Source: Escherichia phage S143_2. From it: DNA of 64,000 bases. The notes under the pieces are model-generated. The model was not told the DNA's origin. It was given only the letters and a program-made list of their open reading frames with translations, and searched no databases. The DNA is taken from sequence record MZ189261.1; one strand, 5' to 3'. This document shows, piece by piece, positions 1-43,874 of this stretch (position 1 is its first letter; every line of letters starts with the position of its first letter). The translations under genes and the position numbers were made by a program.

Positions 1-202
1 AAGTTCCTGCGTCCGAAAGAGCTTCTTCATAGTACCCATTAATTTCTTTAAGAGTCCTACGTTTACCACCAGGACCATCAACAGTAATTTTCCATTTACC
101 TGTAGAAGTGCGGCTCGGTGGCTCAACTTGTTCAATCCAAATATAACCACCTTCAACGCGTTGGTTGGCTGATTCTGCAATAAATTCTTTATACGTTTTC
201 AT
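1..202 (-). CDS. internal-protein-like capsid-targeted protein, 3' end outside window
   Basis: ATG at 202; translation MKTYKEFIAESANQRVEGG... matches the T4 IP N-terminal capsid-targeting sequence (MKTYQEFIAE); runs off window edge; absent from ORF track because incomplete. Confidence 0.5.
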   Translation of the reverse strand, partial: MKTYKEFIAESANQRVEGGYIWIEQVEPPSRTSTGKWKITVDGPGGKRRTLKEINGYYEEALSDAGT

Positions 203-266
203 TTTTTGTTTCCTTGTTTGTTTTGATAGAGTAATTATACCATATTAATACTTAAGCGTAAACTGT

Positions 267-527
267 TTAAGCTTTACCGCCAGAAATAATTCCGAAGTTG
301 TTAAAATCGTATCCAATATCGTCAACATCTACTTTAGGGCTTGCTACAACATAAGCAATTTCACTACGTTTTGCATAGGTGTTGATTTCTTTACCATCGC
401 CACCTAAGAAAAAATACCCATTACGTTTTAATGAGCCAAAGTCTTCCGCATCACCAATGAAAGCTTTAACTTTAAATTTGGGGCTTTTGGCATCTGCTTC
501 AGAGATAAATTCTTGGTACATTTTCAT
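267..527 (-). CDS. internal-protein-like capsid-targeted protein (86 aa)
   Basis: N-terminus MKMYQEFISEA resembles T4 IP capsid-targeting sequence with L/I-x-E cleavage motif for gp21 protease. Confidence 0.55.
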   Translation of the reverse strand: MKMYQEFISEADAKSPKFKVKAFIGDAEDFGSLKRNGYFFLGGDGKEINTYAKRSEIAYVVASPKVDVDDIGYDFNNFGIISGGKA

Positions 528-533
528 TTTTCC

Positions 534-947
534 TTAGTAAATTGATTTACCATAGTATTTGTACCAAGTAGGGCGCTGAGCAATTTTTTCATCTAAGCGT
601 GCTTGACTTATCGCAATGGACGCTTCGGACGGGACATAATTATTACGAAATTCGGCAGGGATGTCGGAAATATCCTGGACAGTCGTGTCCTTGATTTTGA
701 AACCACGTTTCAAGCATTCAGCGATTAGCTCGATTTGTCGTAAACGTAAAAATTCAAGTTTGTCGTAAAAGAATGTTACGTGACCTGTGCCTAAGATAAA
801 TGTTGGAGAGATTTTAAAATCCTTTACACGTTTACCGTTTTGAACATGTTTACGGACTGCACCAAATACGCGTGGTAATTCACGATACTCAGCCATAAGA
901 TGTTGGTCGGTCAGTTCAGAAACAAGTGTTAAATTGATACGAGTCAT
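534..947 (-). CDS. denV: endonuclease V, pyrimidine-dimer DNA glycosylase
   Basis: [31 protein letters not shown]... near-identical to T4 DenV as I recall it; start trimmed to ATG 947 preceded by GGAGGAA. Confidence 0.9.
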
Positions 948-1005
948 AAGTTCCTCCAAGTAGTTGATGAATGTATAGTATCAAAGTCCTTGGAGGAAGT
1001 AAACA

Positions 1006-1287
1006 CTATTTTTCTGAAGCGCCTGAAATATATTTTTCAAGACGTTGTTTCATCAGCGAGCCGTTCTTAGCGATTTCTTCCGGTTTATCGCACATACGCA
1101 ACAAGGCTTCAAGCTTAACGATATCGCTGGTACGTTCAAATTTGCGAGTATCTATCTTACTAGCAAGTTCAGAAATACGTGCTAATAGACTTTCAGCTTC
1201 AACCAAAGCTGCACCTAGCTTAGTTGCAAATGTGTCAGTAGCTTCGTTAAGAATAGATTCTGATAAAAATTCACTATATGTTTTCAT
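1006..1287 (-). CDS. internal-protein-like capsid-targeted protein (93 aa)
   Basis: Starts [11 protein letters not shown] at internal ATG 1287; ATGA stop/start overlap with e. Confidence 0.55.
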
Positions 1288-1772
1288 ATATACGCTTTCC
1301 AAGTTCCTGTTTTAAATGTTGAGATTACGCGTTTCGCGCGATTAGGTGTCTGACGATACCATTTAGATTGGGCTAGATTTACTGCCGCTTCGTCCCAACG
1401 TTTCTGTTGAAGCATACGAAGAGAATTAGTAAAACCAGCGACGCCTGCTACACCCATTTGGAAGACCATATTGACCAATGCACATCGACGAACTGCATCT
1501 AAAGAATCGTATACCGGTTTAAGTTTAGCATTACCCAAGATTCCGCGAACAGCTTTATCAACGTCTTCATTAAATAACTTTTCAGCCTCATCAAGGGTAA
1601 TTGTACCGTTGCATTTACGTCCGATCATTCTGTCAAGTTCAGCTTTAGCTACGGCTAAAGACGGGTTCTTTGTTACTAAATGACCTATGCCAATCGTCCA
1701 AAAGCCTTCAGTGTCTTTGTATAAAGTCAGTCTAAGACCTTCGTCATTACGAAGCATTTCAAATATATTCAT
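1284..1772 (-). CDS. e: endolysin, T4 lysozyme
   Basis: [23 protein letters not shown]...TIGIGHL about 80% identical to T4 lysozyme by eye, catalytic Glu11/Asp20 present; start trimmed to MNIF with GGAGGT SD. Confidence 0.93.
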
Positions 1773-1773
1773 A

Positions 1774-1799
1774 ATACCTCCCACGTTTATAGGAGGTAT
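1774..1799 (-). promoter_or_regulatory. inverted repeat pairing the e Shine-Dalgarno (ATACCTCC / GGAGGTAT), loop contains TATAAACG
   Basis: Perfect 8-bp inverted repeat directly upstream of e ATG; mirrors the known T4 e early-transcript translational block. Confidence 0.6.
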
Positions 1800-1806
1800 T
1801 TATTAC

Positions 1807-2265
1807 TTATAGGATGGTAGTGAGCACCTTATATAATGATTTGCCCATTACATATTCCCATTGAGAAGGTTTAATTAAAGCGAATGCATCAAATTCAGGA
1901 ATCTGTCGTCCGTCTGGGAATGTATGATAGGAATTACAAACACTGTTTCTGAATTGCTCGTGCTCTACAGGGATGGTATATAGGAACAGATGAATATTCT
2001 TATTGTCTGAGTAATGATGTTCACCTAGGTCTTTCAGGAAGGCAGGGTCATATTGTGTAAACCCAGTTTCTTCTTCGCATTCACGAATAGCGGCTTCGAT
2101 AGGAGATTCGCCGGGCTCGACACGACCTTTAGGAATATCCCACCGATGAGCTAAAGAACCTTTAGGACGAGAACCAGTTACACGCCCCATGAATAATTCT
2201 TTATCTTCGGTAAGGAAAATAATACCAGCTGATAGTTCTTTCACTTTATTTTTCTTACTCATCAT
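1807..2265 (-). CDS. nudE: Nudix hydrolase
   Basis: Nudix box GRVEPGESPIEAAIRECEEETGF; position immediately upstream of e as T4 e.1; start chosen at MSKKNK after AGGAA. Confidence 0.85.
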   Translation of the reverse strand: MMSKKNKVKELSAGIIFLTEDKELFMGRVTGSRPKGSLAHRWDIPKGRVEPGESPIEAAIRECEEETGFTQYDPAFLKDLGEHHYSDNKNIHLFLYTIPVEHEQFRNSVCNSYHTFPDGRQIPEFDAFALIKPSQWEYVMGKSLYKVLTTIL

Positions 2266-2753
2266 CTCAAATTCCTGCATTCGGTAATAAAACGTTCAAC
2301 TTCATTATTCTTGGCCTTTATCTTGTCTTTATGTTCTTGTAAACTACTTTTAATAAGATTAATAATGATGGCGGTGGTGCCGCCGCCAATGATGCCACCA
2401 ACAACACTTATGATAATAGATGCTAATAAGATAGCAATAATATCAACAAAACCTAAAGAACTCACCTTAGTACTGAAAAACCATATAGACGGTACAAATA
2501 TAATCCATCCTGTTATCCATTGGCACTTATTGAAAAACTTTTCAAGCTCAGCTTGAGTTGTTTGTATTACTTCATCGATAGGTTGATATCCATTAATGTA
2601 TCTGTTCACGATAATACCTGCTGGCTGGTCGATTTTAAATTCTTGGCAAATACGTTTCACTAAGTAGGATGGACAGGATGTCCAATCTACTGAATAGTAT
2701 GAAATACCTTCATTGCCATCGTCTATATTAGACCAATATGTTTTGTTAATCAT
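2262..2753 (-). CDS. small membrane protein (163 aa), two predicted TM helices, unknown function
   Basis: Hydrophobic stretches WITGWIIFVPSIWFF and FVDIIAILLASIIISVVGGIIGGG; C-terminal ERFITECR motif. Confidence 0.6.
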   Translation of the reverse strand: MINKTYWSNIDDGNEGISYYSVDWTSCPSYLVKRICQEFKIDQPAGIIVNRYINGYQPIDEVIQTTQAELEKFFNKCQWITGWIIFVPSIWFFSTKVSSLGFVDIIAILLASIIISVVGGIIGGGTTAIIINLIKSSLQEHKDKIKAKNNEVERFITECRNLR

Positions 2754-3439
2754 TACCAGCCTTCCATAGGGAATTCCAGATAAACTTGAGCATTGACACG
2801 AATTTCATTGGTAATCTTTTTAACTCGGTCTGTATTACGAGATACACGTCCGAACCAACGCCATCCATTACTAATTGCACGAGAACCAGTGTGCCATGTT
2901 TGCCAATCAAACTGAAGAAGAGTACGATCTGGAGCTTCCCATTTCTCTAGTTCACCTTTTTCAATTTTTTCGAGGACTTCTTTGTGCCACTGGCGATAGA
3001 TAAGTTCGCCATCAGGAATCTGACTGAACTCTGCAGTTCCTGTTGCAAAATGAGTAGGACACACATCAGCGTTAACAAGACCAAGAATATGTTCAGACAA
3101 ATAGCGAGGATTGTCATAATCAGGTTGTCCTGCAGTAATAAAGTGTTGACCGACTGGAATATCTGGGCGAGGAACATCATCATGGTGATATCCAGGAATA
3201 GCAGGATACCAACCGGGCATCAGCATGTGAACTCGTGAATCAAATACTACATCCGAGTCTTTCCAATCGTCAGGAAGATTTTGGATAAAGCTACGAGTAA
3301 TCGGGCCACCATTATCAAAAGCAAAATTCAAATCGCAGTTAAAGAACATAGGCTCGTTTTTAATCTGGTCGTTTTTAATCGCATGAGCAAAACCACCTAC
3401 TGCACGAGCTTGGCTATTAAACACTTTAGAACTATTCAT
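2753..3439 (-). CDS. hypothetical protein (228 aa), His/Asp-rich motif
   Basis: Long ORF with SD GAGGAAAA; motif GYHHDD...HF; no family recognised. Confidence 0.6.
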   Translation of the reverse strand: MNSSKVFNSQARAVGGFAHAIKNDQIKNEPMFFNCDLNFAFDNGGPITRSFIQNLPDDWKDSDVVFDSRVHMLMPGWYPAIPGYHHDDVPRPDIPVGQHFITAGQPDYDNPRYLSEHILGLVNADVCPTHFATGTAEFSQIPDGELIYRQWHKEVLEKIEKGELEKWEAPDRTLLQFDWQTWHTGSRAISNGWRWFGRVSRNTDRVKKITNEIRVNAQVYLEFPMEGW

Positions 3440-10192: not shown

Positions 10193-10269
<77 letters not shown>

Positions 10270-10273
10270 TATT

Positions 10274-10348
10274 TGGCGGACGTGATAGGATTCGAACCTA
10301 TAACCAATCGCTTAACAGGCGATCGCTCTGCCATTGAGCTACACATCC
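10274..10348 (-). tRNA. tRNA-Asn (anticodon GUU), CCA encoded
   Basis: Acceptor GGATGTG/CACGTCC, anticodon stem ATCGC/GCGAT, loop CTGTTAA, T-arm ATAGG TTCGAAT CCTAT. Confidence 0.8.
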
Positions 10349-10352
10349 AAAT

Positions 10353-10439
10353 TGGTGGGGAGTGATGGAGTCGAACCACCCGAGTCGCAATGACAATGGA
10401 TTTACAGTCCACACCGCTACCTCTACGGGATAACTCCCC
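10353..10439 (-). tRNA. tRNA-Tyr (anticodon GUA), long variable arm, CCA encoded
   Basis: Acceptor GGGGAGT/ACTCCCC, anticodon loop CTGTAAA, T-loop TTCGACT. Confidence 0.75.
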
Positions 10440-10451
10440 TAATTCATAATT

Positions 10452-10526
10452 TGGTGGCCCTGGGTGGAATTGAACCACCATCTGGCGATTATGAGTCGCT
10501 TGCTTGAACCTTCCAGCTACAGGGCC
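10452..10526 (-). tRNA. tRNA with anticodon CAU (Ile lysidine-type by T4 synteny, or Met)
   Basis: Acceptor GGCCCTG/CAGGGCC, anticodon loop CTCATAA, T-arm GGTGG TTCAATT CCACC. Confidence 0.75.
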
Positions 10527-10527
10527 T

Positions 10528-10603
10528 TGGTGCTGATTGACGGAATCGAACCGCCGACCTTCTCATTACAAGTGAGTTGCTCTACCTACTGAGCTAAATC
10601 AGC
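10528..10603 (-). tRNA. tRNA-Thr (anticodon UGU), CCA encoded
   Basis: Acceptor GCTGATT/AATCAGC, D-arm GCTC AGTAGGTA GAGC, anticodon loop CTTGTAA. Confidence 0.8.
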
Positions 10604-10608
10604 AAAAC

Positions 10609-10698
10609 TGGCGGAGGCGATAGGATTTGAACCTATGAGTCGCCGGAGCGACTGCCGGTTTTCAAGACCGGTGCATTAAACCACTCTGCCACGCCTCC
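10609..10698 (-). tRNA. tRNA-Ser (anticodon UGA), long variable arm, CCA encoded
   Basis: Acceptor GGAGGCG/CGCCTCC, anticodon stem CCGGT/ACCGG, loop CTTGAAA. Confidence 0.8.
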
Positions 10699-10700
10699 AG

Positions 10701-10774
10701 TCTCCATACAAGGATTTGAACCTTGGGCCTCCTGATCCCAAATCAGGCGCTCTACCAAACTGAGCTACACGGAG
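10701..10774 (-). tRNA. tRNA-Pro (anticodon UGG), no encoded CCA
   Basis: Acceptor CTCCGTG/TATGGAG, anticodon stem CCTGA/TCAGG, loop TTTGGGA; 2-nt spacer to tRNA-Ser. Confidence 0.8.
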
Positions 10775-10784
10775 TAAATTAAAT

Positions 10785-10858
<74 letters not shown>

Positions 10859-10863
10859 AAATT

Positions 10864-10950
10864 TGGTGCGAGAAGTGGGACTCGAACCCACAAGGAAATC
10901 ATTCCGCAGCATTTTAAGTGCTGTGCCTTTACCAATTTGGCCATTCTCGC
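10864..10950 (-). tRNA. tRNA-Leu (anticodon UAA), long variable arm, CCA encoded
   Basis: Acceptor GCGAGAA/TTCTCGC, anticodon loop CTTAAAA, T-arm GTGGG TTCGAGT CCCAC. Confidence 0.8.
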
Positions 10951-10951
10951 G

Positions 10952-11024
10952 CTGGGAATAAAGGACTCGAACCTTTGCATCCTGGAATCAAAATCCAGTG
11001 CCTTACCAACTTGGCTAATTCCCA
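10952..11024 (-). tRNA. tRNA-Gln (anticodon UUG), no encoded CCA
   Basis: Acceptor TGGGAAT/ATTCCCA (U1:A72), anticodon stem CTGGA/TCCAG, loop TTTTGAT; 1-nt spacer to tRNA-Leu. Confidence 0.8.
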
Positions 11025-12048: not shown

Positions 12049-12357
12049 CTATTTTATTCCGCGTGATGCAATCGTATTCTGCCGTTTAACGCCAGTTTGT
12101 TTAAAGTTATGATTGTCAAGTTGATCGGTACGAGCAACTCCGAATGATGATTTAATCTTAGCTTTAGATCCTTTAGTTATAGAAATAAACATCTCGGGAG
12201 CCCCTTTCTTAAAGTCCGAAGCAATTACTTCAACACCGTTCTTAGCAAGTGACCTCAGAATTGCTTCCGCGTACTCATCATCAAGACCCGCTTGAGTATG
12301 AATAACGAATGTCTTTGGTGCAGCCGCTTCATTGATAAATTCTTTATAGGTTTTCAT
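12049..12357 (-). CDS. internal-protein-like capsid-targeted protein (102 aa)
   Basis: N-terminus MKTYKEFINEA. Confidence 0.6.
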   Translation of the reverse strand: MKTYKEFINEAAAPKTFVIHTQAGLDDEYAEAILRSLAKNGVEVIASDFKKGAPEMFISITKGSKAKIKSSFGVARTDQLDNHNFKQTGVKRQNTIASRGIK

Positions 12358-12417: not shown

Positions 12418-12690
12418 TCATTTTAAATAAATTGCGTATTTTTTATAACCCGCCGACTCATGACGAAGACCCTTATCATTAGCAAAACGCTCAATGTTGT
12501 TAATTTGATTCTGGTCAAGTTCAGAGATGTCAAACACGAAAAAGTTACGTTTGTTACCAACTGTTACATAGTCAGTTAAATCAATATCATATAGGTAATT
12601 GATGTCAGCAATCAAAGTCTTGACAGCTTTGCTAATTTTTACTTTTTCGTTAAAAGTAGCTTCATTGATAAATTCTTTATAGGTTTTCAT
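12418..12690 (-). CDS. internal-protein-like capsid-targeted protein (90 aa)
   Basis: N-terminus MKTYKEFINEA; in the position of T4 ipI next to 57B. Confidence 0.6.
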   Translation of the reverse strand: MKTYKEFINEATFNEKVKISKAVKTLIADINYLYDIDLTDYVTVGNKRNFFVFDISELDQNQINNIERFANDKGLRHESAGYKKYAIYLK

Positions 12691-41956: not shown

Positions 41957-42381
41957 TGTATCTTATCCCTGAATCTTATGAATTGGTACTCGAAAATGTC
42001 GAAGCACTTATTCCTGAAGCACAGGGCCGAATCGATGCATTGTCTTCTGCTCTCGATATTGACGATATAAATACTATTATCGAGAACATGCTTGAAACTG
42101 AAACGGATTTAGCTGTTGCAATGGCTTCCATTATTAATGAAGAACAGTTAAATGAGTTTATTGTTAAACATGTTTCTTCTCGTGGTGAAGTCACCCGCAC
42201 TAAAGACCGTAAAACTCGTGAACGTAACGCGTTCCAAACAACCGGTCTTTCTAAAGCAAAACGTAGACAAATCGCTCGTAAGGTCGTTAAAGCTAAAAAA
42301 GCTAACCCTTCAGGCCAAGTTAAAGGCTTGCGTAAGCGTAAAAAAGCTCTTAAACGTCGTAAAGCATTAGGATTAAGCTAA
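41956..42381 (+). CDS. 68: gp68 prohead core protein
   Basis: 141 aa as T4 gp68. Confidence 0.85.
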
Positions 42382-43028
42382 TGAATAAACCCGAGTTACT
42401 TATTGAAACTTGGGGTCAACCCGGTGAGATTATTGATGGCGTTCCAATGTTGGAATCTCATGATGGAAAAGATTCTGGCTTAAAACCAGGGCTTTATATA
42501 GAAGGTATTTTTCTTCAGGCAGAGGTTGTTAACCGAAATAAACGTTTATATCCTAAACGCGTTTTGGAAAAAGCAGTAAGTGACTATATTAAAGAACAAG
42601 TCGCAACCAAACAAGCCCTTGGAGAATTAAACCATCCACCTCGTGCAAATGTTGACCCCATGCAAGCCGCTATCATTATTGAAGATATGTGGTGGAAAGG
42701 AAACGATGTATATGGACGTGCTAGAATTATTGAAGGCGACCATGGTCCCGGCGATAAATTAGCTGCTAATATACGAGCTGGTTGGATTCCAGGTGTTTCC
42801 TCTCGTGGTCTTGGTTCTTTAACCGACACCAATAAAGGGTACCGTATCGTGAACGAAGGATTTAAATTAACCGTCGGCGTAGATGCCGTATGGGGACCTT
42901 CCGCTCCAGATGCTTGGGTTACTCCTAAACAAATATCAGAATCAGAATCAGAAAATTCGGTGGAAACCGCCAAAAACAGTGCTGATGAAGCATTTAAAGC
43001 TCTCGCAGAGAGTTTAAAAGCATTATAA
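42381..43028 (+). CDS. 21: gp21 prohead core protease
   Basis: 215 aa (T4 212 aa). Confidence 0.9.
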   Translation: MNKPELLIETWGQPGEIIDGVPMLESHDGKDSGLKPGLYIEGIFLQAEVVNRNKRLYPKRVLEKAVSDYIKEQVATKQALGELNHPPRANVDPMQAAIIIEDMWWKGNDVYGRARIIEGDHGPGDKLAANIRAGWIPGVSSRGLGSLTDTNKGYRIVNEGFKLTVGVDAVWGPSAPDAWVTPKQISESESENSVETAKNSADEAFKALAESLKAL

Positions 43029-43061: not shown

Positions 43062-43874
43062 ATGATCAAAGAACAACTTTTGAAAGAAGCTCAGAACATC
43101 GAGACTTCAGTTGCTCTTAATAGTGTTTTCGAATCAGTAGAACTGTCTCCGGACGTTAAAGCTAATTTCAGCACTGTATTCGAAGCCACCGTTAAGCAGG
43201 AAGCAGTCAAACTGGCTGAATCTCATATCAAAGCCATCGCCGAAAAGGCCGAAGAAGAAGTTGAAAAGGCTAAAGAAGATGCTGAAGAGAAAGCTGATAA
43301 AAAATTGGCTGAACAAGCTTCTAAATTCCTAGACCATCTTGCAAAAGAATGGCTCGCAGAAAACCAAATCGCAGTTGATAAAGGCATTAAAGCTGATTTG
43401 TTCGAATCCATGCTTGGTGGTCTGAAAGAACTGTTTGTTGAACATAACGTTGTTGTTCCAGAAGAATCTGTAGATGTTGTAGCAGAAATGGAAGAAGAGC
43501 TGGCCGAACATAAAGAAGAAACCGCTCGTTTGTTCGAAGAAGTTACCAAACGTGATGCATATATCAATTACGTTCAGCGTGAAACCGCTATTAATGAAAG
43601 CGTAAAAGACCTGACTGAATCTCAGAAAGAAAAAGTTATTGGCCTGGTTGAAGGTATGGATTATTCTGACGCATTTGGTACTAAGTTAACTGCTATTGTA
43701 GAAATGGTTAAAGGTTCTACTAAAGAAGAAGCCGCTATCACCGAAAGTATAAATACAGTTGACAATGACGCTGCCGGTCTTAATTTTGTTGCCGAAGCAG
43801 TTGACACTACCACAACTCAGGTAGAACAGAATTCTAATGTAAGTTTATATGCGAAAGTCGCATCTCGTTTCTAA
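43062..43874 (+). CDS. 22: gp22 prohead core scaffold
   Basis: 270 aa acidic helical protein (T4 269 aa). Confidence 0.9.
   Translation: MIKEQLLKEAQNIETSVALNSVFESVELSPDVKANFSTVFEATVKQEAVKLAESHIKAIAEKAEEEVEKAKEDAEEKADKKLAEQASKFLDHLAKEWLAENQIAVDKGIKADLFESMLGGLKELFVEHNVVVPEESVDVVAEMEEELAEHKEETARLFEEVTKRDAYINYVQRETAINESVKDLTESQKEKVIGLVEGMDYSDAFGTKLTAIVEMVKGSTKEEAAITESINTVDNDAAGLNFVAEAVDTTTTQVEQNSNVSLYAKVASRF

Follow-up and report, generated by a model that had tools for sequence, protein, structure and literature searches.

The denV (endonuclease V) locus of Escherichia phage S143_2 carries genes of the T-even internal protein (IP) class, and the products of the three that we analyzed are very probably packaged in the phage head and processed there by the gp21 protease. 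The stretch under study, here the window, comprises 64,000 nucleotides (nt) of sequence record MZ189261.1. It is a Mosigvirus stretch (the RB69/JS09-like T-even group), and its bases 1 to 3000, which match 366 phage records, are 98.1% identical to Escherichia phage AV117. A preliminary description of this end of the window had pointed to three open reading frames (ORFs) around denV that begin like the T4 IPs. Translation bears this out, and the first two proteins start MKTYKEFIAES (ORF1) and MKMYQEFISEA (ORF2) exactly as written there. The positions at which these ORFs were said to end, 202, 527, and 1287, are correct as positions, but they are the first bases of the start codons of ORF1, ORF2, and ORF3 on the minus strand.

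The finding is correct but already known: the genes belong to an annotated class, lie where that class is expected, in a well-known hypervariable locus, and represent no new kind of element. The internal-protein identity agrees with existing annotation, in that PHROGs and GenBank/RefSeq call two of the three proteins "internal head protein," while GenBank/RefSeq labels for the family of the third, ORF1, are Ip10 or putative internal head protein. GenBank already contains exact (100%) matches to ORF1 and ORF3; for ORF2, the closest match has 97.7% identity. The interest of these genes lies in what their products may do. Internal proteins are the first phage products in the cell and so set host range against restriction systems that read modified DNA, and the three families considered here (Ip5, Ip10, and the family of ORF2) have members in about 190 to 500 sequenced phages, many of which are therapy or biocontrol candidates.

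A conserved leader with a gp21 site

In T4, the first 10 residues of IPIII are sufficient for capsid targeting, including the packaging of foreign proteins. Mutagenesis of IPIII showed that residues 4 and 7 matter for targeting and residues 8 and 10 for processing, and gp21 cleaves after the Glu of L/I-x-E (PMC9026906). The leaders of ORF1, ORF2, and ORF3 are identical to that of T4 IPII and IPIII (MKTYQEFIAE) at seven to nine of these first 10 residues, and all three have Tyr4, Phe7, Ile/Leu8, and Glu10. ORF1 reads MKTYKEFIAE/S and ORF2 reads MKMYQEFISE/A, where the slash marks the predicted cut; the [L/I]-x-E motif at the leader end is thus IAE/S in ORF1 and ISE/A in ORF2, with LSE/S and LNE/A as its two occurrences in ORF3. 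The earlier claim of a T4-like targeting sequence of about 10 residues ending in a gp21 motif therefore stands. The pattern MK[TM]YxEF[IL]xE occurs five times when the window is translated in all six frames, in every case where a minus-strand ORF begins, and 0 times in 100 triplet shuffles of the window.

The window also encodes the machinery that such a leader needs. Searches (tblastn) with T4 proteins identified, besides gp21 and gp22 (Table 1), gp68 (81% identical), gp23 (95%), and gp67 (64%, a partial match), and the gp23 maturation site, FLTE/AEIGG, is unchanged. With gp21, gp22, and this site all in the window, the phage has the T4-type targeting and processing system on which the leader depends.

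To the preliminary description, similarity of the N-termini at the nucleotide level only would have counted against the IP assignment. On the sequence side, this is not what the leaders show. The 74 leaders compared comprise 57 distinct sequences of 33 nt, Thr3 is encoded by all four of its codons and Ile/Leu8 by seven, and the constrained leader positions show 2421 synonymous and 936 nonsynonymous differences. These comparisons indicate that the leader is kept by protein-level selection and is not merely shared DNA.

Behind the leader the three proteins part ways, as had been observed before. With leaders removed, the bodies of ORF1, ORF2, and ORF3 showed no blastp similarity to each other or to T4 IPI, IPII, or IPIII, and hhalign on family alignments found no relation among any of these bodies (maximum probability, 8.3%). 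Pfam and NCBIfam gave nothing above threshold. PDB sequence searches returned only matches with E values of at least 0.09 (filamin and CsgH), which we discarded as noise. The predicted mature sizes, 8.2 to 10.8 kDa, compare with 8.0 kDa for IPI* and 9.8 kDa for IPII*.

Family assignment of ORF1, ORF2, and ORF3

Comparing mature sequences with known IPs, as the preliminary description had suggested, places each protein in an existing family: ORF1 in Ip10, ORF3 in Ip5, and ORF2 with gp125 of phage VR25. For ORF1, which runs off the window edge, we used the AV117 copy, which is identical over the 67 visible codons and is 104 residues long. The predicted mature protein has about 94 residues, 10.8 kDa, an isoelectric point (pI) of 9.6, and a net charge of +5. 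The full-length AV117 body is 72% identical to VR25 ip10 (E = 6.5e-52), and ORF1 is 72% identical to Ip10 of Shigella phage SP18 (E = 1.9e-44); in PHROGs it falls in phrog_3966 (E = 4.5e-34), labeled "unknown function." By sequence similarity, ORF1 belongs to the Ip10 family. An exhaustive search for Ip10 in 1.84 billion representative proteins yielded a single true homologue (P0020, 54%) along with five giant repeat proteins (P0021 to P0025; whole-protein E values down to 2e-10). We rejected the latter as a compositional or beta-repeat artifact and not homology, because their scores sum several weak stretches over unrelated repeat types; Pfam finds FG-GAP, RTX-linked, AIR9/Big Ig, filamin, and CBM60 repeats in them.

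A predicted T4 early-type promoter lies before ORF1 at 262 to 234 (GTTTAC/TTTACG, a 17-nt spacer, and TGgTATAAT; 10 of 12 consensus matches, with an extended -10 TG), followed by the Shine-Dalgarno sequence AAGGAAA. Alignment of upstream regions shows this layout to be common to ORF1, T4 ipI, and two further IP genes of the window, of the Ip7 and Ip9 families (Table 1). Since T4 is reported to produce its IPs in large amounts both early and late (PMC6071114), an early promoter before ORF1 is consistent with its being a packaged protein.

ORF2 starts 7 nt past the denV stop codon and would yield a mature protein of 76 residues, 8.2 kDa, and pI 6.4. Its body is 74% identical to that of VR25 gp125, which is annotated as "internal head protein" with no family name, and 64 to 74% identical to homologues in Salmonella and Gaprivervirus phages. 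PHROGs searches matched it to phrog_2667, "internal head protein" (E = 2.7e-20), and phrog_35655 (E = 1.9e-24). The sequence thus assigns ORF2 to an unnamed VR25-gp125-like internal-protein family. PHROGs joins ORF2 and Ip7 in phrog_2667; blastp without leaders and hhalign show no relation between the two.

ORF3 has an ATG that overlaps the stop codon of the lysozyme gene e (ATGA). It matches phrog_3499, "internal head protein," with E = 1.2e-46, and its body is 90% identical to VR25 ip5 (E = 1e-53) and 47% identical to Ip5 of RB32 and T2 (E = 2e-19 for RB32), where the RB32 annotation ties Ip5 to RB69ORF127c. Judged by these similarities, ORF3 is a member of the Ip5 family. Its two candidate gp21 sites, at Glu10 (followed by SILNE) and Glu15 (followed by A), give a predicted mature protein of 78 to 83 residues and 8.6 to 9.2 kDa, with a pI of about 6.3 to 6.4 if cut at Glu10.

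The region upstream of e (1764 to 1815, minus strand) contains a strong predicted hairpin (arms AAUACCUCCUAU and GUGGGAGGUAUU; -16.3 kcal/mol, z = -4.0). The GGAGG ribosome-binding site of e lies in its 3' arm, with the start codon directly after, and a late-promoter-like TATAAGTA with one mismatch sits just upstream (1811 to 1804). The arrangement resembles that of T4 gene e, in which the ribosome-binding site is hidden in early transcripts. Because ORF3 is translationally coupled to e, the hairpin may also control ORF3.

Internal protein genes form a hypervariable array around denV

The genes at the left end of the window all lie on the minus strand and are transcribed in the order e, ORF3, denV, ORF2, ORF1. 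All three ORFs thus fall within the e-denV-vs.8 region, one of the two known ip loci. The T4 order is e-ipIII-ipII-denV-vs.8 (NC_000866); here, with the outer part taken from close relatives, it is e-Ip5-denV-ORF2-Ip10-(IPII orthologue just outside the window)-vs.8. In those relatives, the leader-bearing IPII orthologue beyond the left window edge has a body 92% identical to that of T4 IPII, with vs.8 next to it, so that the denV locus has four IP genes and not three. The preliminary description was accordingly one short in its count for the present phage. denV itself is a landmark inside the array and not part of the IP system.

We surveyed this locus in 80 viral contigs from IMG/VR that carry a denV relative, scanning the denV strand for leader-bearing ORFs. 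The detection pattern fixed leader positions 1, 2, 4, 6, and 7, and only the other positions provide independent evidence. Where denV was at least about 60% identical, 29 of 36 loci carried one to five leader-bearing ORFs (69 in total), a lower bound because further-diverged leaders are missed by the pattern. Five of the seven loci lacking such ORFs belong to jumbo phages (345- to 378-kb contigs), which are not T-evens. Where denV was at most 47% identical, none of 44 loci had leader-bearing ORFs. Conservation at the unfixed positions was high: Thr3 in 65, Ile/Leu8 in 68, Glu10 in 67, and Ala/Ser/Thr11 in 61 of the 69 leaders.

By blastp, the 69 bodies fall into 15 families, or 16 when T4 IPI is added, and pairwise comparison of these families with hhalign revealed no relation (maximum probability, 8.3%). 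The set of families differs even between phages whose denV is 99% identical, with Ip5-denV-ORF2-IPIII in two loci (L007 and L008) and Ip5-denV-ORF2-Ip10-IPII in the lineage of the window. The IP genes form a hypervariable cassette array around denV, in which unrelated cargo proteins bear the same leader.

Nine of the 15 body families (in loci L007 to L042) match none of the reference set of IPI to IPIII, Ip5, Ip7, Ip9, Ip10, and the ORF2 family. They include one of 131 to 132 residues (L009, L010, L032, L033, L040, and L042), one of 91 residues (L014, L015, L017, L021, and L028), and singletons of up to 167 residues. The array flanking denV is thus a rich source of uncharacterized, putatively injected proteins.

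Proposed mechanism and role

In the mechanism that we propose, each protein is made with the 10-residue N-terminal capsid-targeting sequence read from its translation (MKTYxEF[IL]xE). As for T4 IPIII, this leader would dock the protein on the gp22 scaffolding core during prohead assembly; the role of the core as the docking structure comes from PMC9026906. gp21 would then cut after the Glu of [IL]-x-E, at Glu10 in ORF1 and ORF2 and probably at Glu15, possibly also Glu10, in ORF3. Motif and protease are both present in the window, and the cut is predicted from them. The mature protein of 8 to 11 kDa would remain packaged beside the DNA in the head and be injected into the next host, where it would neutralize a first-line host defense, by analogy with T4 Ip1, Ip2, and Ip3.

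The steps up to injection, which make ORF1 to ORF3 packaged, gp21-processed T-even IPs, we hold with high confidence. For the role, the analogy with T4 makes anti-defense of some kind fairly probable. T4 Ip1, Ip2, and Ip3 each block a distinct GmrSD enzyme, and the authors of that work expect the same role for the other genes of both Ip loci (PMC12373910); IPIII is needed on strain ECOR17 (PMC9391042). Enzymes of the GmrSD family and BrxU cut the DNA of RB69 and of Mosigvirus phages (PMC6024577, PMC13390438), and Mosigvirus DNA carries arabinosyl-5-hydroxycytosine rather than glucosyl-hydroxymethylcytosine (PMC13326640, PMC13390438). Because of the Ip1 to Ip3 precedent and because such enzymes cut Mosigvirus DNA, injected, subtype-specific inhibition of a GmrSD-type (Type IV restriction) enzyme would be the most likely single role, an assignment that we make tentatively. 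Blastp and hhalign found no similarity of ORF1 to ORF3 to the known GmrSD inhibitors, and PDB sequence searches gave no match. Since Ip1 to Ip3 are themselves mutually dissimilar (PMC12373910), missing similarity to them is no argument against an inhibitor function.

The known targets so far are those of T4 Ip1 to Ip3 only, one GmrSD subtype each (PMC12373910). Assigning targets to Ip5, Ip10, and the ORF2 family would improve host-range prediction and provide probes for new Type IV restriction variants. It is rather doubtful that at least one of these three families inhibits a host defense not yet linked to any IP, for which possible candidates are a modification-dependent nuclease or other sensor specific for the arabinosyl-5-hydroxycytosine DNA of Mosigvirus or a system outside the GmrSD family. 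If so, the range of the internal-protein toolkit would be wider, and the protein could be used to find the matching defense in wild E. coli and Shigella.

Evidence against and alternative explanations

Several observations weigh against the reading of ORF1 to ORF3 as packaged, processed anti-defense proteins. Mature ORF2 and ORF3 have a net charge of about zero, unlike the basic T4 IPs. Upstream of ORF1 to ORF3 there is no exact match to the late promoter (TATAAATA); to the sites with one mismatch we give no weight, as they are expected by chance in AT-rich DNA. AlphaFold2 models had mean predicted local distance difference test (pLDDT) scores of 43.5 for ORF1/Ip10 (3-sequence alignment) and 55.3 for ORF2 (4 sequences), too poor for a fold search. 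A literature search turned up neither virion proteomics nor N-terminal sequencing nor a genetic test on Ip5, Ip10, or the family of ORF2, and a search for Mosigvirus virion proteomics or functional work on Ip5, Ip7, Ip9, and Ip10 found nothing usable, HY01 being T4-like with only five gel bands identified.

Two further points concern the cleavage site and the start codon. In the Ip5 family, the members P0018, P0019, and VR25 read MKTYNEFLTVTTLNE/A and lack Glu10, and the RB32 leader reads MKTFKEFATKTTITE/S. Because [IL]-x-E at residues 13 to 15 is common to all compared Ip5-family members while Glu10 is missing in some, this conservation suggests that the family-wide cleavage site is probably Glu15 (Leu13-Asn14-Glu15/Ala), and the Leu-Ser-Glu that ORF3 has at residues 8 to 10 in this lineage would be a supplementary or redundant one. 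In ORF2, in-frame ATGs occur at codons 1 and 3 (the second at 521 to 519, within the region 519 to 545 on the minus strand), with spacings of 3 nt and 9 nt, respectively, from the AAGGA Shine-Dalgarno sequence. Annotators mostly start ORF2 at Met3 (MYQEF...), which leaves the leader two residues shorter. The AV117 copy of ORF2 (L001, 3266 to 3526) reads MKMYQEFIIDADAK, with Asp10 in place of Glu10. Asp10 in T4 IPIII blocks processing and leaves targeting intact (PMC9026906); it is rare, occurring in 0 of the 69 leaders from other loci, and the AV117 residue may reflect either a sequencing error or a natural variant that escapes cleavage.

The alternative that survives best, which we nevertheless consider unlikely, keeps the injected anti-defense role and moves the targets outside the GmrSD family, to other modification-dependent nucleases, modified-cytosine DNA glycosylases, Type I restriction-modification, or other first-response systems. 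None of the bodies is related to Ip1 to Ip3, the relevant host enzymes may differ for DNA that carries arabinosyl-5-hydroxycytosine (PMC13326640, PMC13390438), and glycosylases such as Brig1 also attack modified T-even DNA (PMC13216743). Arabinosylation, however, already protects from Brig1 (PMC13216743), GmrSD/BrxU enzymes do cut Mosigvirus DNA, and the three characterized IPs all hit one enzyme family, which PMC12373910 expects for the rest.

Another alternative is that ORF2 is nonfunctional as an IP in this lineage, either because translation starts at Met3, making the leader too short, or because the gene is decaying. The Shine-Dalgarno spacing, the annotated starts, and the AV117 Asp10 speak for it, as does Met3 itself, which is specific to this Mosigvirus lineage (2 of 69 leaders). 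So do the many truncated, frameshifted, or internally deleted versions of ORF2 in a large protein database (P0006 and P0008 to P0014), one of which, P0014, fuses denV residues 1 to 30 to the ORF2 C terminus. These broken versions come mostly from short Logan/ENA assemblies, however, and may be assembly artifacts rather than real decay. Relatives with Thr3 have only the first ATG, which is thus their start; the Lys2 codon has been retained, as has the reading frame; conservation of the body is good among the homologues in Salmonella and Gaprivervirus phages; and in 214 of the 217 phage genomes with an ORF2 match, at least 80% of the ORF is found at a single place. Loss of function in ORF2 is thus distinctly unlikely.

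A third explanation accepts packaging and gives the proteins a structural or physical role, such as neutralizing DNA charge or helping condensation or ejection, instead of anti-defense. T4 IPs are abundant and basic, with lysines that contact DNA phosphates (PMC3012670), charge balancing is mentioned in PMC6071114, and mature ORF1 is likewise basic. The near-zero net charge of mature ORF2 and ORF3, which weighs against likeness to the T4 IPs, also weighs against this role. A generic charge role would moreover leave unexplained why 15 unrelated families of bodies replace one another among phages whose denV is 99% identical, and all three T4 IPs have specific anti-restriction targets (PMC12373910); we regard it as improbable. 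Finally, it is very improbable that the 5' ends are shared simply as recombination or expression cassettes spread by DNA exchange, with early, cytoplasmic, unpackaged proteins, since the promoter and 5' untranslated layout common to ORF1, Ip7, Ip9, and T4 ipI, the early-type promoter of ORF1, and the 43-bp direct repeats that flank Ip cassettes in the RB32 annotation are set against the codon-level divergence of the leaders, the retention of the leader by ORF2 (coupled to denV) and ORF3 (coupled to e) despite different upstream DNA, and the packaging of foreign proteins by the T4 10-residue leader alone (PMC9026906).

Relation to known systems

As packaged IPs, ORF1 to ORF3 most closely recall T4 IPII and IPIII, with which they share the near-identical 10-residue leader, the [IL]-x-E/[AS] gp21 site, and the e-vs.8 locus around denV; IPII, at roughly 10 kDa when mature, is also of about the same size. 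The bodies show no detectable similarity, and the gene order relative to denV differs. T4 Ip2 and Ip3 have demonstrated GmrSD targets (PMC12373910), whereas those of ORF1 to ORF3 are only proposed. T4 IPI*, the inhibitor of the CT596 GmrSD, is likewise small (76 residues mature, a similar size class), packaged, gp21 cleaved, and injected; it differs in its 19-residue leader, MKTFKEFTSTTTPVSTITE/A, and its unrelated body.

According to PMC12373910, the family names Ip5 and Ip10 go back to Repoila et al. 1994. Ip5 occurs in T2, T6, RB32, and VR25. The Ip5 gene of Tequatrovirus phages belongs to the ipI locus and encodes an IPI-type leader; ORF3, by contrast, is found between denV and e, with translational coupling to the latter, and carries the extra Leu-Ser-Glu site. 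Ip10 of SP18, VR7, and VR25 has the same length and leader as ORF1 and also adjoins denV. In VR25 the order is denV-ip10-gp125, and in the window the last two are swapped, giving denV-ORF2-Ip10. Karamvirus-like Enterobacter phages have an Ip10 homologue that is 52 to 56% identical. A more distant parallel is the Dar system of phage P1, in which anti-restriction proteins are also carried in the capsid and act before phage gene expression (PMC12810830); the proteins, their sizes, and the mechanism of incorporation are presumably unrelated.

Other features of the window

The features discussed above are collected in Table 1. The Ip7 and Ip9 genes sit between 57B and trna.4, which is the canonical ipI locus, and each has its own early-type promoter (GTTTAC ... 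TGnTAT-like). A sequence search of the window found no homologue of IPI, a protein that RB69, a phage of the same genus, reportedly has (PMC6024577).

Table 1. Internal protein genes and associated features in the 64,000-nt window of phage S143_2
Feature	Position	Strand	Evidence
ORF1, Ip10 family, 5' part (67 of 104 codons)	<1-202	-	Translation; AV117 for full length
Intergenic region with predicted early-type promoter and Shine-Dalgarno sequence for ORF1	203-266	-	Promoter scan; upstream alignment
ORF2, 86 residues, unnamed family (VR25 gp125/VR7 gp127-like)	267-527	-	Translation; PHROGs; 74% to VR25 gp125
denV (endonuclease V)	534-947	-	Translation; annotation of relatives; T4 comparison
ORF3, 93 residues, Ip5 family	1006-1287	-	Translation; phrog_3499; VR25/RB32 Ip5 similarity
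Lysozyme e	1284-1772	-	
Ip7-family gene, leader MKTYKEFINE/A	12049-12357	-	92% to RB32 Ip7; phrog_2667, E = 5.6e-41
Ip9-family gene, leader MKTYKEFINE/A	12418-12690	-	97.5% to RB32 Ip9; phrog_7673, E = 9.2e-55
gp21 prohead protease, expected leader-removing enzyme	42381-43019	+	tblastn with T4 gp21, 87% over full length
gp22 scaffold core protein, thought to be the leader-binding structure	43062-43871	+	tblastn with T4 gp22, 77%

Plus-strand ORFs antisense to the IP genes (for example, 971 to 1315) were without support, and we treated them as spurious. An extra 237-bp ORF separates nudE from a membrane-protein gene in many close relatives, among them ST0, GADS24, and JN02 (L002, 5254 to 5490). 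It is absent from AV117 and from the window (at about 2260, between nudE and an e.2-like gene), and we regard it as a small presence/absence polymorphism. Between the e region and the ipI locus lies an array of tRNA genes. Its T4 counterpart has eight, interrupted by segB; the array of the window, in which there is no segB-like ORF, has ten (Arg, Asn, Tyr, Met, Thr, Ser, Pro, Gly, Leu, and Gln) at 10193 to 11024 on the minus strand.

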